NCBI GenBank assembly: GCA_022072205.1
Contig: JAJVID010000004.1
Span: 10,242-74,241, forward strand
Direction: 5' to 3'
DNA: 64,000 nt
Source: Acidobacteriota bacterium
Lineage (GTDB): Bacteria; Acidobacteriota; Blastocatellia; RBC074
In this document: piece by piece, positions 39,236-60,259 of the stretch
How the letters are laid out: every line of letters starts with the position of its first letter
Numbering within the stretch: position 1 is the stretch's first letter
Program-made: the position numbers and the translations under genes
The notes under the pieces: generated by a model
What the model was told of the DNA's origin: nothing
Seen by the model: the letters and a program-made list of their open reading frames with translations, nothing else
Database searches by the model: none

Positions 39236-40666
39236 ATGAACGACACAACAAAAAGTATTTCACGCCGCTGGCGCAGGATCGTGATCGCATTCGCCCTCGG
39301 CATGGTGGCTGCGCCGAACCAGAGCTTGATCGTTTACGGGCAGGACGCCACCGGCGGTTCAACGCAGGCGACGCGGCAAGCAAGCGCGCCTGAAGCGTTG
39401 ACGCTGCCCCTGGCCGTGGAGATCGCCCTGCGAACGAATCCGTTGATGCGGGCAACGGCTGCGGGCCGCGAGATCGCAGACGCTCAGGCGCAGGAGGCGA
39501 AGGCCGGGCGTTTTCCGTTGGCGCAACTCAGCGAGACCTGGACAAATGGCAACAACCCGGTCTTCGTCTTCGGTTCGCTATTGGAACAGGGGCGCTTCAC
39601 GCAGCAGAACTTCGACCTGCTATCACTGAACAATCCCGGCCCGCTCAACAATTTTCGCTTTGGCGTGACGATCAAAGCGCCGCTCTTCGACGGGCGGCAG
39701 ACGGCGATGCGCGTCGCCGTCGCCAAACTCAATCAGAAACAGGCTGACGCGCAAACCGATCAGATGGCGCAGCGGATTCGCTTCGAGACGCTCAAGGCGT
39801 ATTACGGAGTTTTGCTGGCGCAGATGAAGAAGGAGGTCGCCGACGAAGCGGTCAAGCTGGCTGAGGCCGATGTCAGACGCAGTGGCGACCGCGTCGAGAT
39901 CGGGACAACTGTTAGCTCGGATTTGCTCTCGGCGGAAGCGCAACTGGCCGAATTTCATCAGCAACAGATTCAGGCCGCCGGCGAGGTCGTCATTGCGCGA
40001 GCGGCGTTGAACATTGCGCTCGGCTTGCCGGTGGACGCGCCACAGAACGTCAGCGGGCGGCTCGTCGCTAAAACTTTCAACGTGGCCAGCCAGGACGAGT
40101 TGATGCGGACGGCGCTCGAACATCGTCCGGATTATTCGCGCGCCGCATTGGCCAGGGATTCGCGGCGGGAACAATGGAATGGCGCGCGCAATGAATTTCT
40201 GCCGCGCGTTGACGTGTTCGCCAACGCTGGCGTAAGCCGCAACAACTGGGCCAGCGGAAGCGGCGATTATCTGATCGGCGCCAGCGTCACGTTCAATCTG
40301 TTCGACGCCGGACGCAGCGCCCGCATCGCCGAGACGCGGGCAGCGGCTGAACTGGCCGCGAGCGAACATGAACATCTGGCAAATCAGATTCGCCTCGAAG
40401 TCGTGCGCGCCTATCAGGAATACGTCTCCGCGCGCGAACGGCAGGCCGTCGCCGAGCGAGTCATCAGCCACGCCACTGAAGCCTTGCGCATCGTGCAGGA
40501 TCGTTACCACGAAGGATTGACGACGATCACCGAAGTTCTGCGCGCCGAGACGGCGCTGGCGCGGGCGCGTTTGAACCTGCTCGCGGCTCGCTACGAGCAC
40601 TACGTCGGTTACGCCAATGTTTTGCTGGCGAGCGGCAGATTGACGGATGTTGAGCCATTTGTTTGA
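39236..40666 (+). CDS. TolC-family outer-membrane efflux protein (OMF)
   Basis: 476 aa with a signal peptide and two tandem OEP repeats rich in coiled-coil ([15 protein letters not shown]..., ...[15 protein letters not shown]). Confidence 0.85.
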
Positions 40667-40675
40667 GGTATCACA

Positions 40676-40838
40676 CCACGTAGTAACGAATAATGGTCTT
40701 TGAGTAAATAACGCAACACCAGCGTAGGGGCGGGTTTTCCCCGCCCAGGCCCCTCAATAGCGGATCCGGGCGGGGAAAACCCGCCCCTACGCTGGTGTTG
40801 TAGTTAATTTTCAAACGCCATTATTCGTTACTACCTGG
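40676..40838. repeat. Composite palindromic element: family-A-like termini (CCACGTAGTAACGAATAATGG / CCATTATTCGTTACTACCTGG) enclosing a GC-rich hairpin
   Basis: Outer inverted repeats seen directly. The inner palindrome 40724-40800 is CAACACCAGCGTAGGGGCGGGTTTTCCCCGCCC...GGGCGGGGAAAACCCGCCCCTACGCTGGTGTTG. It lies between the OMF and adaptor genes of the efflux operon. Confidence 0.75.
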
Positions 40839-45446: not shown

Positions 45447-48155
45447 ATGCTGCGCGTAACGATAAATTTTAAAACTCATGAATTCCCTGAAGGCTGGACA
45501 ATTCTTGAGGCGGCGCGTTCGTTAGGGCTTGACCTGCCGACGCTTTGCCACGACGACCGCCTGCGGCCCTGCGGCAGTTGCCGGCTGTGCCTGGTGAATG
45601 TGAAGGGACTCTCTCATCCGGCGACGGCGTGCAACACACAGTTGGCCGGCGGGATGGTGATTGAAACCCACGCGCCGGAACTTGAGAACACGCGCCGTCT
45701 GTTGCTCCGGGAAATGATTGATGAGTATCCAGCCGAGCCAGTCAGAAATTTCCCCGAAAAGCCCTTCCATCGCTGGTTGATCCATTATGGTTTGACGAAC
45801 GAATGCTCGGGAACCGCTACCCCTGCTCTCGCCGACGACACGCACCCTTACATTCACGTAGATATGTCGCAGTGCATTACGTGTTACCAGTGCGTGCGGG
45901 TCTGCGAGGATTTGCAGGGTCAATTCGTATGGCAAGCCATGTTTCGCGGAGCGAGGACGCACATCTTCCCCGATTCACCGCCGGGGGCGAGAGAATCGCT
46001 GCGCGACAGCTCATGTGTCAGTTGCGGCGCGTGTGTGGACGTTTGCCCGACCGGAGCGTTGGAGGACAAGTCGTTGATCGAGCGCGGCGCGCCAACCGAG
46101 TGGACCAGGACAACCTGCCCATATTGCGGCGTGGGCTGTGAAATGAACGTCGGCGTAAGAGAGCAGCGGATCGTCACTATCAGACCGGCTCTCGATGCCC
46201 CGGTCAGCAAAGGCCATTTATGTGTGAAAGGGCGCTATGCCTTCGACTTCGTTTACGCCGCCGATCGAGCGACGAGTCCGATGATCCGCGCGCCGGAGGG
46301 TTGGAAGAGCGTTTCGTGGGATGAGGCGATCGCATTCACCGCCGAGAAGCTGGCGCAGATTGTCGAGCGTGACGGCGCGGACAGCGTCGGTCTGCTGGGA
46401 TCAGCCCGAGCGACCAACGAAGAGAATTACCTTACCCAGAAGTTCGCCCGCGTCGCGCTGGGAACCAACAACGTTGATTGCTGCGCGCGCGTTTGCCATG
46501 CGCCGACTGCGGCGGCGATGAAAGCGATCCTGGGGACCGGCGCCGCGACCAATTCATTCGACGACATCGAGCAAGCTCGAACCATCCTTGTTTGCGGCTG
46601 CAATCCGACTGAAAACCATCCGATTGTCGGCGCGCGCATCAAACAGGCTGCCCGGCGGGGCGCAAAGCTGATCGTGAGCGATCCGCGCCGCATCGAGCTG
46701 GCCGAATACGCCGATCTGCATCTCCCGCTGCGGCCCGGGACGAATGCGCTTTTGCTCAACGCCCTGGCCTCCGCCATTGTCGAAGAAGGTTTGTTCGATG
46801 AGCAATTCGTCGGCGAGCGGGTGGGCGAATGGGAAGACTTCAAGGAATTCATTCGCGCATATGCCCCGGAACAAATCGCCGGCCTGTGCGGCGTGGAGGC
46901 GAAGCTGATCCGCGAAGCTGCGCGGCTCTATGCGACGGCTAAACCCGCGCTCAGCGTTCACGGTCTCGGCATGACCGAACATTCGCAGGGAACGGAAGGC
47001 GTCATGTGCCTCGTCAATCTGGCGCTGCTGACAGGAAACATCGGCAAGCCCGGCGCCGGAGTGAACCCGCTGCGCGGACAGAACAATGTGCAGGGATCGG
47101 CGCATATGGGGTGTGAGCCTGGCAACCTGACCGGCTTCGTCTCCATCGCCGACGGCAAAGAACGGTTTGAAAGCGCCTGGCGAGCCGTCTTACCCGCGAG
47201 CCGCGGGCTTAACCTGATGGAGATGATGGACGCGGCGGAGCAGGGAAAGTTGAAAGCGCTCTGGGCAATCGGCTACGACATCCTGCTGACCAACGCCAAC
47301 GCGCATCGCACGCGACAGGCCTTGAGGAACCTCGAGTTGGTGATCGTGCAAGACATGTTCTTGAATGAAACCGCCAGAGAGTTCGGAACGGTCTTTCTGC
47401 CGGCGGCTTCCTCTTTTGAAAAAGACGGCACGTTTATGAACGCCGAGCGACGCGTCCAGCGCGTGAGAAAAGTGATTGAGCCAATCGGCGGGGCGAGGGC
47501 CGATTGGGAGATCATCTGCGAGATCGCCCGCGCTATGGGAAAGGGCGAGCATTTTGCCTTTCGTTCGGCTGAGGAAATTTGGAATGAAGTCCGAACGGTT
47601 TGGCCCGTCGGGCGCGGCATCTCTTACGACCGGATCGAAAACGCCGGGTTGCAGTGGCCTTGCCCATCCGAAGATCATCCCGGAACGACGCTCTTGCACG
47701 CCCGGGAATTTCCGACGGGTAAGAGGGCGGCGCTGCGCAGAATAGACTATTCAGCCACGCCCGAAGTTCTATCCAACGAGTTTCCGCTCCTGCTCATCAC
47801 CGGCCGCAAGCTTTATCAATTCAACGCCGGAACGATGACCATGCGCACGAGAAACGCCGAATTGTATCCGACTGATTGCCTGGATATTTCACTTCACGAC
47901 GCTGAGCGACTCGGCGTGGCCGACGGAGAATGGGTGCGCTTATGCAGCCGTTATGGCGAAGCCGTATTACCGGTCAGAATAACTTCGCAGGTTAAGCCCG
48001 GCGAGCTATTCGCCACTTTTCACACAACCGAAGCCTTCTTGAACAATCTTACCAGCCCGTTCCGGGATCAATACGTCGCCACGCCCGAATATAAGGTGAC
48101 CGCAGTCAGGCTTGAAAAAATCCAACCTCTCCCAATGTCAGGGAATCGCGAGTGA
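45447..48155 (+). CDS. Formate dehydrogenase alpha subunit (NAD-linked FdsA/FdhA type: 2Fe-2S, 4Fe-4S and molybdopterin domains)
   Basis: N-terminal 2Fe-2S (LCHDDRLRPCGSCRLCLV), 4Fe-4S clusters (CITCYQCVRVCE, CVSCGACVDVCP, TTCPYCGVGCEM), a molybdopterin oxidoreductase core, and active-site CCARVCHAPT (a Cys, not Sec, variant). Confidence 0.9.
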   Translation: MLRVTINFKTHEFPEGWTILEAARSLGLDLPTLCHDDRLRPCGSCRLCLVNVKGLSHPATACNTQLAGGMVIETHAPELENTRRLLLREMIDEYPAEPVRNFPEKPFHRWLIHYGLTNECSGTATPALADDTHPYIHVDMSQCITCYQCVRVCEDLQGQFVWQAMFRGARTHIFPDSPPGARESLRDSSCVSCGACVDVCPTGALEDKSLIERGAPTEWTRTTCPYCGVGCEMNVGVREQRIVTIRPALDAPVSKGHLCVKGRYAFDFVYAADRATSPMIRAPEGWKSVSWDEAIAFTAEKLAQIVERDGADSVGLLGSARATNEENYLTQKFARVALGTNNVDCCARVCHAPTAAAMKAILGTGAATNSFDDIEQARTILVCGCNPTENHPIVGARIKQAARRGAKLIVSDPRRIELAEYADLHLPLRPGTNALLLNALASAIVEEGLFDEQFVGERVGEWEDFKEFIRAYAPEQIAGLCGVEAKLIREAARLYATAKPALSVHGLGMTEHSQGTEGVMCLVNLALLTGNIGKPGAGVNPLRGQNNVQGSAHMGCEPGNLTGFVSIADGKERFESAWRAVLPASRGLNLMEMMDAAEQGKLKALWAIGYDILLTNANAHRTRQALRNLELVIVQDMFLNETAREFGTVFLPAASSFEKDGTFMNAERRVQRVRKVIEPIGGARADWEIICEIARAMGKGEHFAFRSAEEIWNEVRTVWPVGRGISYDRIENAGLQWPCPSEDHPGTTLLHAREFPTGKRAALRRIDYSATPEVLSNEFPLLLITGRKLYQFNAGTMTMRTRNAELYPTDCLDISLHDAERLGVADGEWVRLCSRYGEAVLPVRITSQVKPGELFATFHTTEAFLNNLTSPFRDQYVATPEYKVTAVRLEKIQPLPMSGNRE

Positions 48156-48277: not shown

Positions 48278-48616
48278 TCAATTTCCCGGCATCTGCGAAA
48301 CGAACCACGCGATGATCGCGATGAAGATAATCGCCAGACAGGCGATGACGATCACAACGCCGCCCGGCATCAGGCCGTTTTCTCTAGTCTCGCCAGCTTC
48401 GGCCAGAGCGTCGGGCAATCGCCAGTTGTCATCGTCTAGCCGCAGAACGCCTGCGGTGTGATTATTATTTTGTGCCGTCTCGCCGTCGGGCGCGCCATTT
48501 GGCGGAATAGGAACGGCGGATTCTTTTTTCTTTCTGAGTCTGAACGGCCCGCCTTTCACTGCCTGATAAAATCGCCGCCTTCTGTTTTTTGATCTCCTGC
48601 CTCGTTTCATAGCCAT
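48278..48616 (-). CDS. Hypothetical protein with a basic N-terminus and C-terminal TM helix
   Basis: 112-aa ORF overlapping the corA stop by 10 nt. No motif. Confidence 0.3.
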
Positions 48617-49575
48617 TTGATTTTACGGAAGTAAAAGTAGAGCGCCAACCCGACAAGGAGCATTGAGACGAGCGCCCCGACGTAGCCGTAGCGCCAGCCC
48701 AATTCCGGCATGAACTGAAAATTCATGCCGTAAATTCCCGCGATCAGCGTGACCGACATCAGGATCGCCGAGATCGAAGTCAGCCGCTTCATCACGAAAT
48801 TCATTCGATTGCCCGACACCGACAGATACGCCTCCATCGCCGAGCCGACAATCTCGCGCAGCGCGTCAATCGAATCGGCCACGCGGATCAGGTGGTCGTA
48901 AACGTCCTGAAAATAGATCATCGTCTCGCGCGAAAAAACCGGCTGTTCGCGCCTGAGCAGCGTGTTGAAAACATCGCGCAAGGGAACCACGGCGCGGCGC
49001 AGAAAGATCAACTGCTTCTTGATTCTGAAAATATCGTGGAGCGCTTCCGGCTGAAAGTTCTCGAAGATTTGCGCTTCCAGTTCATCCAGACGATCGGAAA
49101 AATCGTCGAGCATCGGCATGTAATCGTCAATGATCGCATCCATCAGCAGGTAAGCGGGCAGCCCCGTTTTGCGCTCGGACACGTCGGCCCAGCGCCGCCA
49201 GAGATGCTGCGCTTTTTCAATGTTGCGGATCGGCTGGCTGTGAACAGTGACCAGGTAATTCGGGCCGAGGAAGATGTTCAGCTCCCGCAATTCCAACGGG
49301 CAGCCGGGTTTCATCTCGGCTTCGTACAGGACGATGAAGTAATAGCCCGGATACTCTTCGACCTTGGGACGTTGGTGTTCGTTGCGGCAATCTTCGATGG
49401 CCAGCGGATGAAAACCGAATTCACGCGCCAGTTCCTCGAAATCCTCGCTGGTCGGATCTGAGACATCAACCCAGACGATGTCGGAAGGATGAGAGCAGTG
49501 AACGGAGATAAGATCGGGATTGCTGACGTGAGTGAATGTTTGGGATGAGCGGTCGAGTACGAGGGTATTGATCAT
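48607..49575 (-). CDS. corA: Magnesium/cobalt transporter CorA
   Basis: YGMNF (GMN) motif before the last TM helices, and the characteristic acidic N-terminal domain. Confidence 0.9.
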
Positions 49576-49620
49576 GGTGATTAGTGGTTAGTGGTTGGTG
49601 GCCAACCACCAACCACTAAT
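49576..49620. repeat. Hairpin ATTAGTGGTTAGTGGTTGGTGGCCAACCACCAACCACTAAT immediately upstream of the corA start
   Basis: Imperfect inverted repeat seen directly, lying between the lipoprotein gene stop and the corA start. A CCACCAACCACCAA motif recurs at 63791-63804. Confidence 0.5.
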
Positions 49621-50116
49621 TGGATGAATTGATCACATGCCCGCCGCCCAGCAGATCATTAATTGCGCGCAGGCGGATCTTTTTTACTTCATCAATCTGA
49701 GCTTCAACCGATTCGCGGGCTTCGAGCGGCAATGCGCGCGTGGCCGCTTCCAGGGTGCGCGTTTGTTTGAAGATCGCCTGCTCGATCTGTTTCAGGCAAT
49801 GATTGCGGTCTTTATTTTTCGCGGCGGGCAATTTGCGCGTGTAAGTGTCCGCGTAAATAACCAGCGCTAAAAACGCGCCCAGATCCTGCGCAGCGCTTTG
49901 GATCTGGTTGTCCTGCGAGAGCAGGGACGCGCTTTTAATTCGGGCCTCGGCGACTCTGAGAACCGCTTTGACGTGCGGCTTCGGATTTTGCTCCTTCAAA
50001 ATCATCTGCTTTTCGGTTTCGCTCAGCAGATCAGGCAATGGCAAATCGTCGGCCTGTTGCTGAGCGCAACCCAGAACAAAAAGCAGAAACAGAATGAAGA
50101 TCGGTTTCGGAAACAT
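49616..50116 (-). CDS. Putative lipoprotein (lipobox LGCAQQ)
   Basis: Signal peptide MFPKPIFILFLLFVLGCAQ; 166 aa, predominantly helical. Confidence 0.5.
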   Translation of the reverse strand: MFPKPIFILFLLFVLGCAQQQADDLPLPDLLSETEKQMILKEQNPKPHVKAVLRVAEARIKSASLLSQDNQIQSAAQDLGAFLALVIYADTYTRKLPAAKNKDRNHCLKQIEQAIFKQTRTLEAATRALPLEARESVEAQIDEVKKIRLRAINDLLGGGHVINSSN

Positions 50117-50267
50117 AACTAGGAACTCTTCCCCACTACTAAATGATCGTTAGTTGATCGTGTCAATATGGGGAGCCACTCGGCCAATAAAATATCACCC
50201 GGCGATTGCGAAACCAAACGCGATGAAATTGAGCCAGACCCGATGCGCTTGTGGCCGCAGCCGCAGA

Positions 50268-50813
50268 TCACATCGTATTCTTCGAGGCCTGGTTTTCAGC
50301 CCAATCCCCGATCAGCGGTAGTTTGGATTGTTCGCCGTGATAGGCTTTGTACATCGCCCATCCTGTTCCGGCCAGAGCGACCAACCGAAGCCCGAAGAGA
50401 AACACGCCTTCCAAAGGCCAGGGCAATATCCGCAAGACGACGCTCAAGACCACCAGCGTGATGAAGAAGAAAATGGATTGCCAGGCGTGAAACCTGACGA
50501 AGCGATCCCGGCTGTATGGCGTGAGCACGAGGAAGAGAATGCCGGTGATGAGCGACAACGGGTAGCAGAGCATCCCCGCAATGTTCGGCTTCAAATCGGC
50601 CTGCGACGCTGGAGATTGATACGGCGCTTGATAAGGAACCTGGCCTTGCCCGAAGCTGAAATCAGCCGGTCGCTGATAATTTGGCGCTTGATAATTCATG
50701 GTCGGAGCGCCAGTGGCGGCGGGTTGAGTGGGGGCCAGTCTTGCTCCGCACTTTTTACAAAATCTGGCGGTTTCCTCCACCTGCGCTCCGCATTGCGTGC
50801 AGTATTTGGTCAT
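50268..50813 (-). CDS. Zinc-ribbon plus DUF4870-type membrane protein
   Basis: MTKYCTQCGAQVEETARFCKKCGARL zinc ribbon, a Q/P/Y-rich linker, and a C-terminal multi-TM domain (LCYPLSLITGILFLVL...). Confidence 0.6.
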   Translation of the reverse strand: MTKYCTQCGAQVEETARFCKKCGARLAPTQPAATGAPTMNYQAPNYQRPADFSFGQGQVPYQAPYQSPASQADLKPNIAGMLCYPLSLITGILFLVLTPYSRDRFVRFHAWQSIFFFITLVVLSVVLRILPWPLEGVFLFGLRLVALAGTGWAMYKAYHGEQSKLPLIGDWAENQASKNTM

Positions 50814-50866: not shown

Positions 50867-50938
50867 ATCGTAGGGGCGAGTTTTCCCCGCCCAAGCCTCG
50901 GTAGCAGATGCGGGCGGGGAATACCCGCCCCTACGATG
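50867..50938. repeat. GC-rich palindromic element, second copy of the hairpin nested in the 40676-40838 element
   Basis: CATCGTAGGGGCGAGTTTTCCCCGCCC...GGGCGGGGAATACCCGCCCCTACGATG. It is followed by ttgttgcacattcaaacgcc, similar to ttgtagttaattttcaaacgcc after the 40724-40800 copy. Confidence 0.75.
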
Positions 50939-50991: not shown

Positions 50992-53900
50992 TCAAAATGT
51001 TTGTCCGAACCTAATATGAATCGCTCCGCGCGGTTGACGCAAGGCCCCGCCGGTGGCCGTGGTGAACGTGGGCGGGTCAATCAGGAACCCGTAATCAACT
51101 CCGACCGGCCCGAGCGGCGTGTTGATCCGCAGCCCAAGCCCGATCGTGTTTGTCATACCGCCGAATCTGAAATCGCTGACGCGCCTGAAAACATTGCCCA
51201 AATCGTAAAACGGCACGAGCCGCAACCGTTGGCTGAGCGGATAACGCATCTCGAAATTGAAGACTGCCAGCGCGTCGCCGCCCGACGGGACGAGCGTCGG
51301 CAATTCGCCGGGTTTGTTGGGGCGTGGCTCCAGGATGATCTGCGGCCCGGCGGTCTCGAATTTGAACCCGCGCAGGTTTGTCGCGCCGCCTGAAAAGAAC
51401 CGCTCGCTGATCGGCAAACACCGCTCGTCCGGGCCGACTATGCCGTCGCCATTGCAATCGGCTCGGCGCGAAGTCGAAGCCAGCCCGATGCGAGCCGAAA
51501 ACGCCAGCGTCGTCGAACCGAGTAGCGGCGTGAACTGATCGAAAGTTTTATACCGCTGATAAGTCGCGAAGAATTTGTTGAACGATTCCGTCCCGCCGAA
51601 CATTCGCGCGGCGATTGAATGATCGGCGCTGAACAATTGCCCTTTGGTCGGGTTGAGCACGTTGTCGCGTGTGTCGCGCGAAACGCCCACCGAAAACATA
51701 CCCAGCCGGATCGAGCGCTCGTTGCGCGTGACCGCCGTTTCGGGAATGTCTTCCAGGTTGAAGAGCCGGGCGCGTTCCAGGTTGTAGCGGAAACGCATTG
51801 AAGTCTGCTCGTTCAGCTTGCGCTCGGTTTGAATGAACGCCGCGAAACGTTCCAGCCCGAACGAAGTGTTTGCGACGCTCTCTTCCTTGCCGTCAACCAA
51901 CTGGCGGCGCACGAACGGCCGCAGATTGCCGGTGCGGTTGTAAAAGACCGAGACCGTCGTCGGCAGTTTGTAACCGAACGGACGAAGGTCGGTGAACGAA
52001 AGCTGCGAGAACTGTTCGCGGCGGCTGGCGCGCAAACGCAGGCTGAGCGAATCGAGCGAGCCGCCCAGATTGGTGTTCGCGATTTCGGCCAGCCCGCGCG
52101 CTCCGTCGTCGGTCGAATAACCCAAACCGTAAACGAACAGCAGCGGCTTGGCTTCGGTCAGATTGACCGACACCTTGTGCGCCGCGCCGTCGCCGCCGCC
52201 TATCGGTTCGGCGCGCACGCTGACCTCGCGGAACGCGTTCGTCGCGTACAGATCGCGCTGCGTCTGGCGAATCCTGGCGGGCGTCAGAATCTCGCCCGGC
52301 TTGAAATCGAAGTAGCGCCGCACCCAACCCTTGCCGGTTTTGGTCGTCCCGTTGATTTCGATCTCGCTGACGACGGCGCGCGCTCCTTCGTTGATGTTGT
52401 AAACCAGCCGGACTCGCTCGCCGCCGAGTTCGATGAATTCGGGTTCGACGGTCGCTTCCAGAAAACCGCGCTGGGTGTAAAGCTGTTTGATCGCTCCGGC
52501 GCCGATCCGCGCGCGCGAATATGAAAACGCCTCGCCCGATTGAATCGGAACCGCCGCCATCAATTCCGAAGCCGGCGCCGTAACGTTGCCGCGCACGTTG
52601 ACATCGGCGATTTCCGATTGCTCGCCGGTTTCAACGTCGAAGATCACTATCAGGTCGTCGTTGTCGGGTCGCAACGCCAGCCGCGATTTGACGCGCGCGT
52701 TGCGGTAACCGATGTCAAGGAGCTTGCGGCGGATCAATTCCTGGTCGCTGTTCAATCGGTCGCCGCTGGTCAGCCCGCGCACGTAACCGCCGATGATCGG
52801 CAGGTCTTTCAAAAAAGGTTTGCCGCCGAGCGCGCTGGCCGGTTGCGATTGCAATTCGCCGGCGATGTCTTTCAGCTTGATGATGTCCGTGCCTTCGATG
52901 CGAATCTCTTTCAGGTCGTAAATCACGTTCGGTTCGACATCGTAAAAGACGCGCAGGTTCTCGCCCGCGCAATTTTCCGGCTCGCAACGCGCTTTGACTT
53001 CGGCGAAGAAATAACCTGACTCCTGCAAATGCTCTTTCAAGCGGCGCTCGCCCAATCGCATCAGCGAGCGGCTGAAGCCCTGAGTCATCACGGGCAACAG
53101 TTCGCGCATGCGGTTCTGGCTCAGCTTGAAATCCTGAATCTCGCTGACCTTGACCTGCGCTGAGGGCAGTTTCGGGCGAACGATGCGCGTCAGCGAATCT
53201 TTCGGCGCGCCCGGCGCTGAAGTCTGTTCAGGTTTGAATCCGAGCGAGAATCGCTGACGCCCGCGCAATTCAATCGTGAACGCTCCTTCGCGCAAACCCT
53301 GCCGGGCCGCGCTGCCGCCCTGCGTGTAAGTCGCCAGCGTCGAGAAGCGGTTTGACAGCGTGTATTCGGCCAACGCGGTTTGATCCTGTTCGGTCGCCAG
53401 ATTGGTCGAATAGCTCAAATAGAGATTACGCGAAACCTGCTCGCCGACGGTCAGCCGCGCCGCCGGGTTGGTGTTCGGGCGGATTATCGGATCAATCTGA
53501 AACCGGCTGATTCCAAGCAATTGTTCGGTCGGGCGCGAAATCAGTCCCGACGAGAGAAGCGAAGCCGCCGCGCCCACGCCCGTGCGGAACGGGTCCTGAG
53601 CGCCAAGCGCCGCGGCTTCGGTGCGGCCCGTCGTGATCAGCGACAGAATTTCGTCGCGCGTCAGTTGCGGTTCGGAACGCAGCGTCAGGTCGAGATCGTC
53701 AATCGGCCCGACCAGACCGAGGTTGACGCGGTAACCGCTGAAATCGCTTTCGGCCAGCAGGTTCAGCAGCGGCGCCGAACTGCCCGTCGAAGGCAGGTCG
53801 AGCGAGCCGGTGATGATTTCGTAACGCTGCCCGCGAAAACGCCACGCGCCGCCGTCGAGCGTGATCAACCCGTTCGGATCGGGGTTCGTGATCGGCCCGG

Positions 53901-56900
53901 TCAGCGTCAGGATCGCCGTGCCGATGGTATTGATCTGATCGTTCTGGATGATCAGCGAATCGCGCGCTTCGACGCGCACGTTCAAATTGATCGTAGGAAT
54001 TTTGAGTTGAGACGCTCCCGCCGCCGGCCCCGAAAAAGCGCCGAGCGACAGATTGGCGCCTGCGCCCAGCGCCAGATTGTCAATGTCAATGCTCGGAATG
54101 TATTCGGCCTGCGGGATCGTGATTTGCCCGGCGAGCGTCTGTCCCTGCGGCGTTCCGTTGAGCGTCAGATTGCCGTTGATCGTCGCGGTGATCTCCTGAT
54201 AGGCGATCACCGCGTTGATGGCTTTGATGTCGTACCGCCACTCTTTCGGGCGCAGCTTGTCGAGTTTGACCACGCCGTCGGCTTCGAAGCGTCCGTCGTT
54301 GGCGTCGGCGGTGAATTTTTCGAGCCTGATTTGATCGCCGGCGAGTGTGAAGCGGCCATTGCCGTTCGAGATGAAAACCGGCAGATCGCTGGTCGAAAGC
54401 CCGAACCCGTTCACGTCAATTCTGCCGTTCAGCTTCGGCTCGTTGAAGGTTCCAGTCAGCCGCGCGTCAATCGAAGTGGTTCCGAAAAGAACCAGGCCGT
54501 CAGTGACCGCAGGCAGGCGATCAAGATTGACCGAGCCGCCGAGCAAAAAATTCATCGCCGATTTGTCGCGCAAACCGAGCGCCCCGCCGATGTTGAGATT
54601 GACGCCTTCGCCCGTGACCCGCATGTTCGGAATCGTGATCTGCGACCGTTCGAGCGTGATCGTCGCGGGAGTCTCGATCTTGACCGGACTGTCGGCGACC
54701 AGTAGCGCGACATCCATCAGCGTCAATGAGCCGCGCAAACGGTCGAATGTCGGCTCATCGTTTTCGTCAGCCGTCGGCCCTTCGATTCGCAGACTGCCGG
54801 TGACCGCGCCTGTAACCGTTGAATTCAATTCGGGAATGAAAGCGTCAACGAGCGGCGCGATCTCCACGTTGGCCAGATTGCTGTCAATCGTGATGGGGCG
54901 GCCCGGCGCGCGCATCTCCACGCTGGCTTTGATCAGATCGGGTTTGCGTCGTGATTCGGCCTTGCCGTTCGCGCCCAGAACGCCGGTGATCAATTCGGCG
55001 TCAATGCGCCCGCCGGGGCTGGTCTGTGCGGTCAATCGTAATTCGCCTGCGTCGCGCCCGTTGATCTTCACACCTTTGCCCTGCGCGGCGAGTTCGACTT
55101 TCAAACTCTCCCAATCGAGGTCGGGCTGTTTGCCGGTGATGATTTTGCCGCTGATCTGGAAATCGGCGTCGGCTTCGCCTTCGACGCGCGTATCCTTCAA
55201 TTCAAAAGCTTCGGCCAGATTGCCGAGCGAAATCCTGTCGGCTTTGCCGGCAGCGCGGAACGAATAGTCTTCAAGGTTCATCGAGCCGCTCGCGGTCAGA
55301 TGCTGCTGCGGCGTCTGAACCTCCAACTGTTCGAGCGATATTGTCCTGCCCTCGAATTTCAAACTCGCGGCGGCCAGTTGCGCCTCTCTGTCCGCGATCC
55401 TGCCGTCAACCAGATTGACCGTCGCCGCGCCGTTGAATGACGCAGGCAAGCCGGTCAGATGAACTTCGCCGGTGATGTCGCCGGTGATGAATTGATTCGC
55501 GCTCGGCGAATCCGAAGCGGCCAGAATCGTTTCCAGACTCATCCGGTCGAGCGTCGCGTCGAACCTGCCCGTATTCGCGTTTTTATCGAGCGGCGACGCG
55601 AGATCGAATTTCACCGAGCCTCCAGAACCATTGGTATTCGACGCGGTGATCAATCCTTTTTCGACACGCGCCTCCGCTGGCGAAATGAAAACGTGGCCCG
55701 TGAACGATCCCAGAATGGCGTCGCGCAAACCGACGGTTTCGGCGTTCACGTCGCCTTCGACTACAGCTTTCTCGATTGGCCCCGTGACGCGGCCTTCAAA
55801 CTTGAAAGCGCCGATAAGCTGCGGCTCGTACTGTTCGATGTATGGCCGCGCGGCCTCGAAGCCGCGAGCGATCTGAATCATCTGCTCGGCGGAAGTCGAA
55901 TTGAGCGAGACGCGCAAGTCGGAATCGCCATCAACCGAAAGGCTGCCGGTAGCGGCCAGCGTCGAAGCCTCAGTGCCCAGTTTCAGTTGATCGAAATTGA
56001 AGACGCCGTTGACCGCTGTGATCTTCACATCGCCCGTAATCGGCGGCGTGTCTGAAGTCTCAGCCGATTTGCCGTCGAAATGAGTAGTGATCGCGCCGTT
56101 GAGGCTGCGCAGGTCGGAGCCGGCGAAACTCAGATCAACTTCGCCGCTGACTTTGCCTGAGATCGGAATGTCTTTAGCGTTGAAAATCGCCGAGGCCGAT
56201 TTCGTCTCGACATCGGCGAAGCTGGCTTTCACTCGCTGCGTCGCGCCCGGCGCCAGAGGCAGAACGTATTCGCCCGCCACAGTACCGTTGAAGAGCGCGG
56301 CTTTGATGTCGCTTACGGCCAGAGCCGTGTTGTCCAGCGTGGCCTGCGCCGAAGCGCTGGTGAATTGCGCTTTGTTGATCTCGCCGCCAGCCAGAACGGC
56401 GGCGGCTTTGACTTCGTAATTCGCGCCGTTGATCTTCGCGTTCAGGTCGTTCAGCCGGAGGTCGTTGAGCTTGCTCTGAGGCCATTCAATCGCGGCGACA
56501 TTGACGGAAGGAGCGGTGATGGTCGCGCCGCCGCCGCTGTATTCGCCTTTAAGATCGTTGATGACGATTGAGCCGAGCTTGACGTTGTCAACCGCCGCCG
56601 ACTGCGCGCGAATCTGATTGCTGGCGAAATTGATCTGGCCGCCTTTGCCTTTGCCGGAGAAAGGAATTTGCAAGCTGGAGAGTCTGATATTTTTGATCGT
56701 CGCATTATCGGAAACGGCGCTGCCTCTGACCGTGTAATTCGCGCCTTCGCCGTCAATGCGGCCATTGATCGCGGCCAGGCCGTTGATCGCAGCGCCCGGC
56801 GCAAAAACGCGCGACGCTTCGCCGAGCTTCACGCGCGAATCGAAATCGAAGCCGTAACGCGGCGCGGCCCAGTCTTCAATCTTGCCTTTCGCTTTCACTT

Positions 56901-57642
56901 CCGCCACGCCGGATTCGAGCTTCAGGCTTTCAATCTCCGCCAGCTTTTCCGAAACGCGCGCGGTCAGGTCAATCTTGTCGAGAGTGTTTTCGCGGCCTTC
57001 GTGACTGACGCGGCCCTTGCCGCCGAGTCGCAGGCTGATCGTGTTCTGAGGCTGCGGCTGGGCTGTGACTTGCAAATCCTGAACGTCCGCGTCGATCCGG
57101 CGCGAAAGGTCTTTGAAGTGAATCGCGCCTCCGGCGAGCGTCGCAAGCAGTTGAGTTGTGTCGAAAGTGATCGCCTTCGATTTCGGCGGAGCGTAATGCA
57201 CGCCGTCCAGATTCGTGCGGCCCTGCCGGTCAATCTCGTAGTAAAGATCAACACCTTCGACCTCGACGCTTTTAACAGCGATTTCGCGGCTCAACTTCAA
57301 AGCGTAAGGGGCGCGGACTTCGACGCGCGTGTCGGCGCGGTTGATCGTAGCCACGATCTGCCCGGTTTGCGCGTTGTAAATTTTCAGATCGCGGAGCCGC
57401 GCCGTTTGCGTTTCCCAACTGACGCCGAAGCTTCCGATTTCCGCTCGCAAGCCGTATTCGCTGAGCTTGGCTTTGATCTCTCCGGCGACGTAGCGGTTGA
57501 ATTTTTCGGATCGGATGTAGATCAGAATGGCGAGCGCGATGACACCGATGAGCAAAGCGACTCCCGCAATTGCGATGAAGAGGTATTTGAGTCTGCGCGG
57601 ACGCGGATTTGGCGGAGCCTCTGACGCTACAGTTGATTTCAT
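50992..57642 (-). CDS. Giant 2216-aa TamB-like (AsmA/DUF490) protein fused C-terminally to a TamA-like Omp85 (three POTRA domains plus beta-barrel)
   Basis: N-terminal signal-anchor (LKYLFIAIAGVALLIGVIALAILIYI) followed by a long repetitive AsmA-like region. The DUF490 C-terminal signature PIIRPNTNPAARLTVGEQVSRNLYLSYSTNLATEQDQTALAEYTLSNRFSTLATYTQGG lies at about 53314-53470. A linker then leads into three POTRA-like units (VFYDVEPNVIYDLKEIRIEGTD, IVIFDVETGEQSEIADVNVRGN, VRLVYNINEGARAVVSEIEINGTTKT) and a Bac_surface_Ag barrel ending ...HIRFGQTF. It is one uninterrupted ORF. Confidence 0.8.
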   Translation of the reverse strand: MKSTVASEAPPNPRPRRLKYLFIAIAGVALLIGVIALAILIYIRSEKFNRYVAGEIKAKLSEYGLRAEIGSFGVSWETQTARLRDLKIYNAQTGQIVATINRADTRVEVRAPYALKLSREIAVKSVEVEGVDLYYEIDRQGRTNLDGVHYAPPKSKAITFDTTQLLATLAGGAIHFKDLSRRIDADVQDLQVTAQPQPQNTISLRLGGKGRVSHEGRENTLDKIDLTARVSEKLAEIESLKLESGVAEVKAKGKIEDWAAPRYGFDFDSRVKLGEASRVFAPGAAINGLAAINGRIDGEGANYTVRGSAVSDNATIKNIRLSSLQIPFSGKGKGGQINFASNQIRAQSAAVDNVKLGSIVINDLKGEYSGGGATITAPSVNVAAIEWPQSKLNDLRLNDLNAKINGANYEVKAAAVLAGGEINKAQFTSASAQATLDNTALAVSDIKAALFNGTVAGEYVLPLAPGATQRVKASFADVETKSASAIFNAKDIPISGKVSGEVDLSFAGSDLRSLNGAITTHFDGKSAETSDTPPITGDVKITAVNGVFNFDQLKLGTEASTLAATGSLSVDGDSDLRVSLNSTSAEQMIQIARGFEAARPYIEQYEPQLIGAFKFEGRVTGPIEKAVVEGDVNAETVGLRDAILGSFTGHVFISPAEARVEKGLITASNTNGSGGSVKFDLASPLDKNANTGRFDATLDRMSLETILAASDSPSANQFITGDITGEVHLTGLPASFNGAATVNLVDGRIADREAQLAAASLKFEGRTISLEQLEVQTPQQHLTASGSMNLEDYSFRAAGKADRISLGNLAEAFELKDTRVEGEADADFQISGKIITGKQPDLDWESLKVELAAQGKGVKINGRDAGELRLTAQTSPGGRIDAELITGVLGANGKAESRRKPDLIKASVEMRAPGRPITIDSNLANVEIAPLVDAFIPELNSTVTGAVTGSLRIEGPTADENDEPTFDRLRGSLTLMDVALLVADSPVKIETPATITLERSQITIPNMRVTGEGVNLNIGGALGLRDKSAMNFLLGGSVNLDRLPAVTDGLVLFGTTSIDARLTGTFNEPKLNGRIDVNGFGLSTSDLPVFISNGNGRFTLAGDQIRLEKFTADANDGRFEADGVVKLDKLRPKEWRYDIKAINAVIAYQEITATINGNLTLNGTPQGQTLAGQITIPQAEYIPSIDIDNLALGAGANLSLGAFSGPAAGASQLKIPTINLNVRVEARDSLIIQNDQINTIGTAILTLTGPITNPDPNGLITLDGGAWRFRGQRYEIITGSLDLPSTGSSAPLLNLLAESDFSGYRVNLGLVGPIDDLDLTLRSEPQLTRDEILSLITTGRTEAAALGAQDPFRTGVGAAASLLSSGLISRPTEQLLGISRFQIDPIIRPNTNPAARLTVGEQVSRNLYLSYSTNLATEQDQTALAEYTLSNRFSTLATYTQGGSAARQGLREGAFTIELRGRQRFSLGFKPEQTSAPGAPKDSLTRIVRPKLPSAQVKVSEIQDFKLSQNRMRELLPVMTQGFSRSLMRLGERRLKEHLQESGYFFAEVKARCEPENCAGENLRVFYDVEPNVIYDLKEIRIEGTDIIKLKDIAGELQSQPASALGGKPFLKDLPIIGGYVRGLTSGDRLNSDQELIRRKLLDIGYRNARVKSRLALRPDNDDLIVIFDVETGEQSEIADVNVRGNVTAPASELMAAVPIQSGEAFSYSRARIGAGAIKQLYTQRGFLEATVEPEFIELGGERVRLVYNINEGARAVVSEIEINGTTKTGKGWVRRYFDFKPGEILTPARIRQTQRDLYATNAFREVSVRAEPIGGGDGAAHKVSVNLTEAKPLLFVYGLGYSTDDGARGLAEIANTNLGGSLDSLSLRLRASRREQFSQLSFTDLRPFGYKLPTTVSVFYNRTGNLRPFVRRQLVDGKEESVANTSFGLERFAAFIQTERKLNEQTSMRFRYNLERARLFNLEDIPETAVTRNERSIRLGMFSVGVSRDTRDNVLNPTKGQLFSADHSIAARMFGGTESFNKFFATYQRYKTFDQFTPLLGSTTLAFSARIGLASTSRRADCNGDGIVGPDERCLPISERFFSGGATNLRGFKFETAGPQIILEPRPNKPGELPTLVPSGGDALAVFNFEMRYPLSQRLRLVPFYDLGNVFRRVSDFRFGGMTNTIGLGLRINTPLGPVGVDYGFLIDPPTFTTATGGALRQPRGAIHIRFGQTF

Positions 57643-57823
57643 GATCGGGACTAACCAGGACGACCAATTATGAAAGAGTAATGAAAGCGATTTTGGGGTG
57701 CGCCCTATTCTTTTACAAAGCGGATGCGATGGTCAAATAGCATTTGACAGTTCGGCTGGACAGGCTCAGTTTGGCAGGCGAAGCTTGCGGAGCTTCGAGT
57801 CCAAAGCTTAAAGTTGCGACGCG

Positions 57824-58060
57824 ATGGATTTTGAAATTGTCGGCTCCATAACCAATATCGAGGCTATCGCAGCCGGCGTGGGTGTTCGTGATCGAGCCCG
57901 ACTGAGAAGGAAGTATGGCGCGGGGAGATGGCGAAAACTGAAAGGTGTTGCCAGAGTTCGATTGCCAGATGGCGCCATTCGCCTTGCGGAAATTCACTGG
58001 TATGAAGCGCATGGTATAGGTAAAAAGGAGTTCAAGTTGAAGCTGCCGTTTCTGGATTGA
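57824..58060 (+). CDS. Small hypothetical protein, first gene of a low-GC overlapping pair, possibly toxin-like
   Basis: 78 aa (…GAGRWRKLKGVARVRLPDGAIRLAEIHWYEAHGIGKKEFKLK). The local GC of about 50% is well below the surroundings. The stop overlaps the next ORF (ATGA). Confidence 0.35.
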   Translation: MDFEIVGSITNIEAIAAGVGVRDRARLRRKYGAGRWRKLKGVARVRLPDGAIRLAEIHWYEAHGIGKKEFKLKLPFLD

Positions 58061-58302
58061 TTATGAAAGAGAAGCCTCAAGATATTCATTTTGCGATTTG
58101 CCTCGACAACGATGGTTATCAGGCCTCGCTTGAGATCGGGAAGCTTTACCGCATTATCCCTGATCGAGAGGCGGAATTGCACGGGCTTATCCGCGTTGTG
58201 GATGAGAGCGGGGAAGATTACGCTTTTTCCGCGGAGCGATTCCATCCTGTAGTGTTGCCGGTAAAAGTGGAACGGGCGTTGTTGGCTGTTTCTCCTGCTT
58301 AA
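58057..58302 (+). CDS. Small hypothetical protein, second gene of the pair, possibly antitoxin/immunity-like
   Basis: 81 aa ([36 protein letters not shown]...), in the same low-GC islet. Confidence 0.35.
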
Positions 58303-58327
58303 CCGGCGGTTGAATCTTCGAATCTCA

Positions 58328-60259
<1,932 letters not shown>

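Follow-up and report, generated by a model that had tools for sequence, protein, structure and literature searches.

A TamB-type bridge and an Omp85 barrel in one conserved polypeptide of Acidobacteriota

Introduction

[quoted passage not shown] The question is raised by an open reading frame (ORF) on the minus strand of a 64,000-nt stretch of DNA from a soil bacterium of the Acidobacteriota (contig JAJVID010000004.1; the whole stretch is called the window here), where positions 50992-57642 encode one protein of 2216 residues. TamB-family bridges are a candidate route for phospholipids to the bacterial outer membrane, and their connection to that membrane in E. coli, the hybrid barrel with TamA, has been seen only recently. 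A preliminary description of the window took this ORF for a TamB joined to a TamA. The core of that description stands, in that one conserved chain does contain a complete TamB-type protein and, after it, an Omp85 protein; its identification of the Omp85 half as TamA does not.

One frame with the domains of two families

The frame opens with an ATG at 57642, the earliest possible start downstream of the preceding stop, and continues over 2216 codons and a stop codon without any internal stop; the uninterrupted ORF that had been described is real from end to end. Along the chain the Pfam families follow one another in the order AsmA, TamB/DUF490, POTRA and Omp85. The AsmA family PF05170 matches residues 16-147 with 33.4 bits (cut-off 29.8), the TamB/DUF490 family PF04357 residues 1110-1442 with 118 bits (cut-off 22.4), and the Omp85 family PF01103 residues 1858-2191 with 144 bits (cut-off 24). 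The POTRA family PF07244 scores 109 bits (cut-off 21.3) and picks up three stretches, the best of which is 1677-1753. A weak YhdP match covers residues 940-1077, and the precomputed annotation of an identical protein, P0001, includes PF27051, TamB_N. Each half has E < 1e-30 against curated models, well outside what chance would give, and both the families and their order are those that the preliminary description had led one to expect. The DUF490 motif that it placed at about nt 53314 is found at residues 1406-1443 (nt 53314-53427), and the aromatic end that it gave to the barrel is present in the C-terminal sequence ...IHIRFGQTF. By the domains that define them, the fused protein belongs to the families TamB and Omp85; it stays below the equivalog cut-offs for proteobacterial TamB, TamA and BamA.

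The signal-anchor and the beta-rich N-terminal region that had been described are also there. Residues 20-43 form the sole hydrophobic segment of the whole protein (Kyte-Doolittle 3.1 in a 19-aa window). An AlphaFold2 (AF2) model of residues 1-1150, made with a 41-sequence alignment, has a predicted local distance difference test score (pLDDT) of 85.4 and shows a helix at 18-44, another helix after it and then about 70 long strands in succession. This predicted pattern is the secondary structure expected for an AsmA/TamB bridge. A Foldseek search of the N-terminal model against the PDB gave no meaningful match, with TM scores of 0.1-0.2 to ApoB100 and LptD. The features of the gene, all on the minus strand, are the following.

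50992..57642 (-): whole ORF, single-chain TamB-Omp85 (open frame; Pfam order; architecture kept in other genomes)
57514..57585 (-): N-terminal signal-anchor, a transmembrane helix at residues 20-43 preceded by a basic cytoplasmic tail (hydropathy, AF2, AsmA match)
54316..57513 (-): TamB beta-rich bridge, residues 44-1109, with an AsmA/TamB_N-type start and then tens of strands of 10-16 residues (AF2, profile)
53317..54315 (-): TamB/DUF490 domain, residues 1110-1442 (PF04357; profile match to the E. coli TamB chains 9xdc_B, 23sp_B and 5vtg_A)
53248..53280 (-): last TamB strand FTIELRGRQRF, residues 1455-1465, end of the TamB module (alignment with stand-alone TamBs, profile)
53158..53247 (-): linker of about 30 aa, rich in Pro, Ser and Ala, residues 1466-1495 (low pLDDT, composition)
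52933..53157 (-): POTRA 1, residues 1496-1570 (beta-alpha-alpha-beta-beta in AF2; aligns from residue 300 of a 1130-aa split Omp85)
52630..52914 (-): POTRA 2, residues 1577-1671, of which 1602-1624 form a disordered insert (AF2; insert also in the split Omp85)
52390..52614 (-): POTRA 3, residues 1677-1751 (AF2; best Pfam POTRA stretch)
52153..52374 (-): POTRA 4, residues 1757-1830 (AF2)
50995..52143 (-): 16-strand Omp85 barrel, residues 1834-2216, with loop-6 LRGF at 2090-2093 and the C-terminus ...IHIRFGQTF (PF01103, AF2, Foldseek, motif positions)
50867..50938 (-): GC-rich hairpin of 72 nt with a T-run behind it, probable terminator of the fused gene (sequence; folding energy; sister copy at 40723-40791)

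Conservation of the fusion

Is the joined frame a property of the organism or of the assembly? In a first homology search the domain set recurred in about 70 proteins of 1900-2430 aa, from 88% down to 22% identity; the named carriers among them are metagenome-assembled genomes (MAGs) of Blastocatellales, Blastocatellia, Chloracidobacterium, Acidobacteriota and Bryobacterales. In public annotation these proteins appear as "TamB domain-containing protein" or "YaeT". A genome scan covered one genome per GTDB species with patterns of the junction region taken from group-1 sequences only, the taxonomy of the class with five POTRAs (below) lying outside its reach. It found 54 loci, all in Acidobacteriota-type MAGs. 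The frame is intact across the junction, with 2209-2383 codons, at 38 of these 54 species loci, and most of the others end at contig edges. The order of genes is kept as well: in about 30 species the fusion is preceded by a divergent selB and followed by a gene for a zinc-ribbon (Zn-ribbon) DUF4870 protein, a 166-aa lipoprotein-like ORF and corA. An exhaustive HMMER search with residues 1300-1700 against 1.84 billion cluster representatives gave 1810 matches at E <= 0.001. Among the best 150 of them (50%-identity clusters), 42 carry DUF490 and the barrel in one chain. These 42 fused clusters fall into two classes by the spacer between the two domains, one of 360-395 aa, with four POTRAs, and one of 411-441 aa, for which the spacer length suggests five POTRAs.

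Eleven of the loci in the scan (L008, L010, L014-L016, L020, L023, L029, L043, L045 and L050) are titled "uncultured Heliomicrobium sp." or "Heliobacteriaceae", which are Firmicutes. Their fused genes are 64-70% identical to the window protein and, where enough flank is present, the neighbours are those seen in Blastocatellia; the taxonomic labels are probably wrong.

This distribution bears directly on the suspicion that a mis-assembled or frameshifted tamB-omp85 pair has been read as one ORF; the preliminary description had itself named a stop or frameshift near the junction as one outcome that would undo its claim. Two cases lend the suspicion some substance, and they are the only non-intact ones that contig ends do not explain. 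At L036 (7001-9367) the junction match spans 2367 nt against the usual 2133 or so and the frame stays open for 885 codons only, which suggests an indel or an insertion, and in one MAG the fused gene is divided over two short low-coverage contigs (L048/L054). On the other side, no stop or frameshift lies at the junction either here or in 38 other species, and these independent species-level assemblies, with their intact frames, rule out an assembly artefact or a missed stop. At the protein level, too, both halves are conserved, with identities in the group reaching down to 46%. Moreover, the split counterpart of the fused Omp85 carries a signal peptide and an N-terminal region of about 300 residues that are absent here (see below), so the fused gene is not a read-through of such a pair. 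An artefact or a pseudogene therefore has next to no probability.

The end of the TamB module and the junction

Since the two halves share one chain, it can be asked where the first of them ends. The TamB part was aligned with 23 stand-alone TamBs from the first homology search, and 20 of the 23 stop exactly opposite residue 1465/1466. The profile of the TamB alignment covers residues 481-1256 of E. coli TamB (9xdc_B, E 2e-57), reaching residue 1256 of 1259 at a point three positions short of the profile end. The profile was required for this match, as phmmer of the junction region against PDB sequences found none. Because the stand-alone TamBs and, through the profile, E. coli TamB all end at residue 1465, the TamB module of the fusion is complete. 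Against the proteobacterial TamB equivalog NF047952 the TamB half scores 80.4 bits, below the cut-off of 825.

The terminal strand of the module, FTIELRGRQRF, ends in an aromatic residue as it does in free TamBs, although here it is internal and not the end of a chain. The stretch FTIE[LV]RGR[QK] is kept across the five-sequence junction alignment of group 1 and was one of only two stretches chosen as scan patterns. This last strand corresponds to the beta-signal strand of E. coli TamB, which pairs with the first strand of TamA.

What follows the strand is shorter than had been thought. The preliminary description counted a linker of about 120 aa; the linker is about 30 aa long (1466-1495), and the remainder of the supposed linker is POTRA 1. 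Its residues 1469-1489 have pLDDT < 50 in the AF2 model, and in close relatives it is variable in sequence and 25-35 aa in length. The hydropathy of residues 1440-1560 does not exceed 0.16, so that no hydrophobic segment is found near the junction that could serve the Omp85 half as a signal peptide. An internal signal peptide, or a separate export of the Omp85 half, is ruled out by the same absence.

The Omp85 half

To which branch of the Omp85 family does the second half belong? An AF2 model of residues 1051-2216 (46 sequences; pLDDT 74.6, predicted template modelling score 0.61) has two helices and six strands at the DUF490 end, a low-confidence stretch at 1466-1495, four POTRA units and 16 long strands. 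The three POTRAs of the preliminary description thus become four, each modelled as a beta-alpha-alpha-beta-beta unit. The loop-6 motif (V/I/L)RG(F/Y) and a C-terminal aromatic beta-signal mark the Omp85 family, and this half has both, ATNLRGF at 2087-2093 and ...IHIRFGQTF at the end of the chain.

In a Foldseek search the modelled Omp85 half finds BamA chains with E of about 1e-39. The equivalog models point in the same direction. Against the TamA equivalog NF047950 the half scores 86.6-91.9 bits, far below the cut-off of 625; against the BamA equivalog TIGR03303 it scores 267.6-271.1 bits, nearer to but still below the cut-off of 297.15. The latter alignment begins at model position 83-97, and a start at position 83 may be read as roughly the second POTRA onward. 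A TamA label is ruled out by the NF047950 score, by the four POTRAs and by the lack of a signal peptide at the start of the Omp85 half, and the earlier assignment to TamA has to be given up. Nor is the half a BamA by the usual marks, as it has neither five POTRAs, nor its own signal peptide, nor a score that reaches the TIGR03303 cut-off. From these comparisons it is best described as a putative BamA paralogue, neither TamA nor canonical BamA.

It could still be asked if the fused protein is the only BamA of its organism, an essential barrel-assembly machine that happens to be tethered to the inner membrane. TIGR03303 is, after all, the best NCBIfam match of the Omp85 half, and the score is only slightly under the cut-off (267-271 against 297 bits). 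This is, however, very improbable. Related stand-alone Omp85 proteins of 932-1008 aa pass TIGR03303 with 399-440 bits and are the sister group of the fused and split clades in the barrel tree; a canonical BamA together with a second, TamB-linked copy has been reported in Acidobacteria (Heinz et al. 2015); and the fused protein's own barrel needs a machine to assemble it.

The modelled Omp85 half superposes better on open, substrate-engaged BamA (8bnz, 9mge, 8bo2 and 8qn4; TMt 0.58-0.60) than on the closed beta-barrel assembly machinery (BAM; 0.47-0.50). This better fit is a weak hint that strands may be engaged at the gate of the modelled barrel, and differences in POTRA orientation would explain it equally well.

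Split relatives and the origin of the fusion

Related genomes hold both the same fusion and a split tamB/omp85 pair. In Pyrinomonadaceae, which belong to the same class, a tamB of 1660-1690 aa is followed after 56-130 nt by an omp85 of 1127-1142 aa on the same strand and then by a surA-like gene (L055-L059). The split Omp85 has a signal peptide, and its residues 300-1130 align with the whole fused Omp85 half (35% identity, E 7e-123); the length of the protein implies about three extra N-terminal POTRAs, seven in total, by length alone. Missing from the fused form, compared with the split pair, are the stop of tamB, the spacer, and the signal peptide and N-terminal region of about 300 residues of the Omp85. 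The window protein is also closer to this pair than to the fusions with five POTRAs: the two halves score 461 bits (TamB, 29% identity) and 382 bits (Omp85) against the pair, and at most 152 and 216 bits against the 5-POTRA fusions. It had been argued from the order of the genes that a simple fusion is excluded, as tamA precedes tamB in the canonical system. That argument falls, because a tamB-then-omp85 pair is present in the nearest relatives. The same order, with a 7-POTRA Omp85, has been published for Bdellovibrio and Myxococcus (PMC3983030). In its evolution the fusion is related to a tamB-omp85 operon of this gene order.

The Pyrinomonadaceae cluster (L055 8001-17298; L056-L059) consists of riboflavin genes, tamB (1660-1688 aa), omp85 (1127-1142 aa), a SurA_N-like gene and a patatin gene. 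The chaperone-like and lipase-like neighbours may bear on the function of the TAM-like pair. The chromosomal context of the split form, with ribBA upstream and surA-like and patatin genes downstream, differs from that of the fused form, with selB and the Zn-ribbon/lipoprotein/corA genes. A split Omp85 is found on three near-complete Pyrinomonadaceae chromosomes, and none of these was recognised among the fused matches of the first search; this indirect comparison hints that different lineages carry one form or the other.

The main groups take similar positions in neighbour-joining trees built for DUF490 and for the barrel. In them the fused clade with four POTRAs is sister to the split clade, the canonical-BamA-like stand-alone Omp85s fall just outside the fused and split clades (barrel tree), and the 5-POTRA fusions stand in separate places. 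The trees carry no bootstrap values, so the polarity of fusion and fission and the number of events are read from them only tentatively. A further case is P0284, a metagenomic cluster representative of 2422 aa. It is fused, with halves that are 42% and 56% identical to the split pair and 26% and 36% identical to the window protein. Its breakpoints are nevertheless those of the window protein, with ...RRRF, a Pro-rich linker and a POTRA whose alignment to the split Omp85 starts at residue 299 of the latter. P0284 suggests repeated fusion, fission being the less plausible course, and it could represent either an independent fusion or an intermediate lineage. Whether single-chain TamB-Omp85 proteins form a large class of several independent origins (the 4-POTRA Blastocatellia, P0284 within the split clade, and at least two 5-POTRA clades) that replaces the two-gene TAM in many Acidobacteriota is close to an even call, and we lean slightly to the doubtful side.

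A probable single-chain machine and its alternatives

How might such a chain work? With one N-terminal anchor and one C-terminal barrel it should be fixed in both membranes, as far as topology can be judged from its segments. The reading we favour, and consider likely, is that of a single-chain TAM-like machine in which the TamB end docks in the chain's own barrel. The N-terminal helix would hold the protein in the inner membrane, and some 1400 residues of TamB-type beta groove would span the periplasm, placing the DUF490 end with its beta-signal-like strand FTIELRGRQRF at the outer membrane. From there a flexible linker of about 30 residues would lead to the four POTRAs and the BamA-like 16-strand barrel in the outer membrane. 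The TamB end may then dock with the POTRAs and with the lateral gate of the barrel in the same chain and so form an intramolecular counterpart of the TamA-TamB hybrid barrel. Lacking a signal peptide, the Omp85 half could enter the periplasm only while joined to the TamB part, and its barrel would presumably owe its folding to the canonical BAM of the cell, by way of the usual C-terminal signal. By analogy with E. coli, the function would be that of a TAM, that is, phospholipid transfer from the inner to the outer membrane and perhaps the insertion of some barrel proteins.

Much of this reading is modelled on the E. coli complex, which is 1:1 and in which the last TamB strand pairs with the first strand of TamA (PMC12800296, PMC13119328). 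The pairing is antiparallel, residue 267 with 1258 and 269 with 1256 (PMC12800296), so the C-terminus of TamB is turned towards the periplasm again, at the foot of the barrel. A linker of 30 residues, up to about 100 A when extended, could reach POTRA 1 from that point, which makes an intramolecular hybrid barrel topologically possible. A stable, even disulfide-locked, TamA-TamB hybrid barrel is functional (PMC12800296, PMC13119328), and it has been argued that the stable hybrid is the functional state (PMC13119328). If so, this state is what a covalent fusion would enforce.

Several points weigh against the favoured reading. All carriers found are MAGs. In some distant fusions only about 5-15 residues of linker precede POTRA 1, and such short linkers are hard to reconcile with a last strand lying in the lateral gate while POTRA 1 is membrane-distal; docking in cis may not be general. 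In addition, the linker may be cut, in which case the chain would not stay single.

The short linkers, seen in some of the 5-POTRA relatives, are also the starting point for one alternative, in which the fusion is a covalent anchor without docking in cis. The Omp85 half would serve as an anchor or insertase, and the TamB end would dock in trans, on a neighbouring copy or on a canonical BamA as in Borrelia, or deliver lipid directly. There are parallels for this: TamB binds the POTRAs of BamA in Borrelia (PMC11361582, PMC5582053), and a non-hybrid state of TamAB exists (PMC12800296). We consider it unlikely, because in the group of the window protein the last strand ranks with the best-conserved stretches of the junction region, which suggests a specific pairing partner, because the main groups are arranged in the same way by the DUF490 tree and the barrel tree, as expected of parts in contact, and because the linker of about 30 aa, about 100 A when extended, is long enough for docking in cis.

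The second alternative takes the protein for a precursor polyprotein, exported whole, after which a periplasmic protease would cleave the Pro-rich linker to release TamB and Omp85, so that the fusion would serve only export and a 1:1 stoichiometry. A disordered linker of variable sequence could indeed be accessible to proteases, and the TamB module ends where free TamBs do, which in E. coli is the free C-terminal strand that pairs with the first strand of TamA. It is, on balance, quite unlikely that this happens: no protease site motif is evident in the linker, some fused relatives have almost no linker to cut, and cleavage is unneeded for function in E. coli, where a disulfide-tethered TamA-TamB works.

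Neighbouring genes and intergenic elements

The palindrome that had been noted downstream of the ORF does exist at 50867-50938 and has a near-identical copy; there is no sign that it is part of the fusion. The 178 nt that separate the stop of the fused gene from the true ATG of the next one (50813) contain it; its folding energy is -78 kcal/mol (z = -7.6), and on the coding strand a T-run comes after it. The copy is at 40723-40791. Each of these GC-rich palindromes of about 70 nt is made of two inverted copies of CGTAGGGGCGGGT(A/T)TTCCCCGCCC, and both stand downstream of gene ends, one behind the fused gene and the other behind an ORF at 39236-40666. The palindrome is probably a repeated intergenic hairpin, similar to repetitive extragenic palindromic (REP) elements, that acts as a terminator.

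Three co-directional genes follow at 48607-50813, namely the Zn-ribbon and DUF4870 membrane protein, the 166-aa ORF and corA, syntenic in about 30 species. The first of them starts at the ATG at 50813, not at a TTG at 50894. The 166-aa ORF (49616-50116) has a lipobox-like LGC and matches no Pfam family; as a lipoprotein it could be an accessory factor of the fused machine.

On the other side, the fused gene and the divergent selB stand 668 nt apart (57643-58309), compared with an estimated 336 nt or so in the closest relative, L046. This spacer contains two minus-strand ORFs at 57713-58012 (99 aa) and 57994-58362 (122 aa), for which neither a Pfam match nor a tblastn match in 58 related loci was found. 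The enlarged spacer may be a genome-specific insertion. The window is also shared by selB (58310-60259) and an ORF at 45447-48155 that resembles formate dehydrogenase alpha (named by eye from its sequence). ARAGORN found no tRNA, including tRNA-Sec, in the 64 kb window.

Significance

A literature search, with subscription-only papers outside its scope, found no description of a natural TamB-Omp85 fusion. Such a fusion is unmentioned in a survey of Omp85 architectures, in a review of AsmA-like proteins, in a 2024 review of the TAM and in two structure papers of 2026 (PMC12800296, PMC13119328). The main evolutionary study of the TAM describes BamA-TamB operons in Acidobacteria and no fusion (Heinz et al. 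2015), and the present fusion extends the picture of TAM evolution given there for Acidobacteria.

The fusion is of interest for several reasons. The structure papers debate whether the hybrid barrel is transient or permanent (PMC12800296, PMC13119328), and a conserved natural fusion, kept by selection throughout a class of soil bacteria, is independent evolutionary evidence for an obligate 1:1 unit. As a fusion of the Rosetta-stone type, it points to a stable complex as the functional form. It also offers a single-chain target for structural work, together with a natural test of the linker lengths that can be tolerated. Finally, it poses a puzzle of biogenesis, since BAM must fold the barrel while the N-terminus of the same chain remains in the inner membrane. 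Should the reading of repeated origin be true, the hybrid barrel would have been made permanent repeatedly, which would argue that a never-dissociating complex is the working state, and a chain of about 240 kDa would be insertable in both membranes at once.

Comparison with known systems

The TAM of E. coli, known from 9xdc/9xdd (PMC12800296) and from structures in nanodiscs (PMC13119328), is built of the same blocks in the same spatial order as the fusion: an anchor, a beta-rich bridge (a groove in E. coli, a putative one in the fusion), DUF490 with the last strand, the POTRAs and a 16-strand barrel. It is, however, encoded by two genes in the order tamA-tamB, its TamA has three POTRAs and a signal peptide of its own, and the two proteins associate non-covalently. 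The window protein, in contrast, is one chain in which TamB precedes an Omp85 half that is BamA-like, with four POTRAs and no second signal peptide.

Closer in gene order are the split pair of Pyrinomonadaceae and the operon of Bdellovibrio and Myxococcus (Bd2494-Bd2495, PMC3983030), where the genes stand in the order of the fused halves; the Pyrinomonadaceae pair contains the closest sequence relatives of both. This pair shares with the fusion the ...R-x-R-F end of TamB, the insert in POTRA 2, the sequences GYFFAEV and LLPV and the C-terminus ...RF-x-QTF. It differs in being two genes, 56-130 nt apart, with an Omp85 that carries a signal peptide and is longer at its N-terminus by about 300 residues.

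A TamB-family bridge with an Omp85 partner that is not TamA is also found in the TamB-BamA of Borrelia burgdorferi and in the TIC236-TOC75 of chloroplasts, where the DUF490 region binds the POTRAs, as it may do in the fusion. In both of these systems the partners are separate polypeptides, and the partner in Borrelia is the single canonical BamA with five POTRAs.

A precedent for one chain in two membranes is the long MlaD of Veillonella parvula (PMC10665443), a single lipid-trafficking chain with an inner-membrane anchor and an outer-membrane beta-barrel. Its fold is unrelated (an MCE hexamer with a helical tunnel), its barrel is small and not of the Omp85 family, and the transport proposed for it is retrograde. 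Other parallels in architecture are the 5-POTRA fusions, of which P0063, from a Bryobacterales MAG, is the sole named member. They have the same layout, with the junction right after the terminal strand of TamB. Compared with the window protein they are 22-29% identical in sequence and have one more POTRA, and their linkers are about 5-25 aa long.

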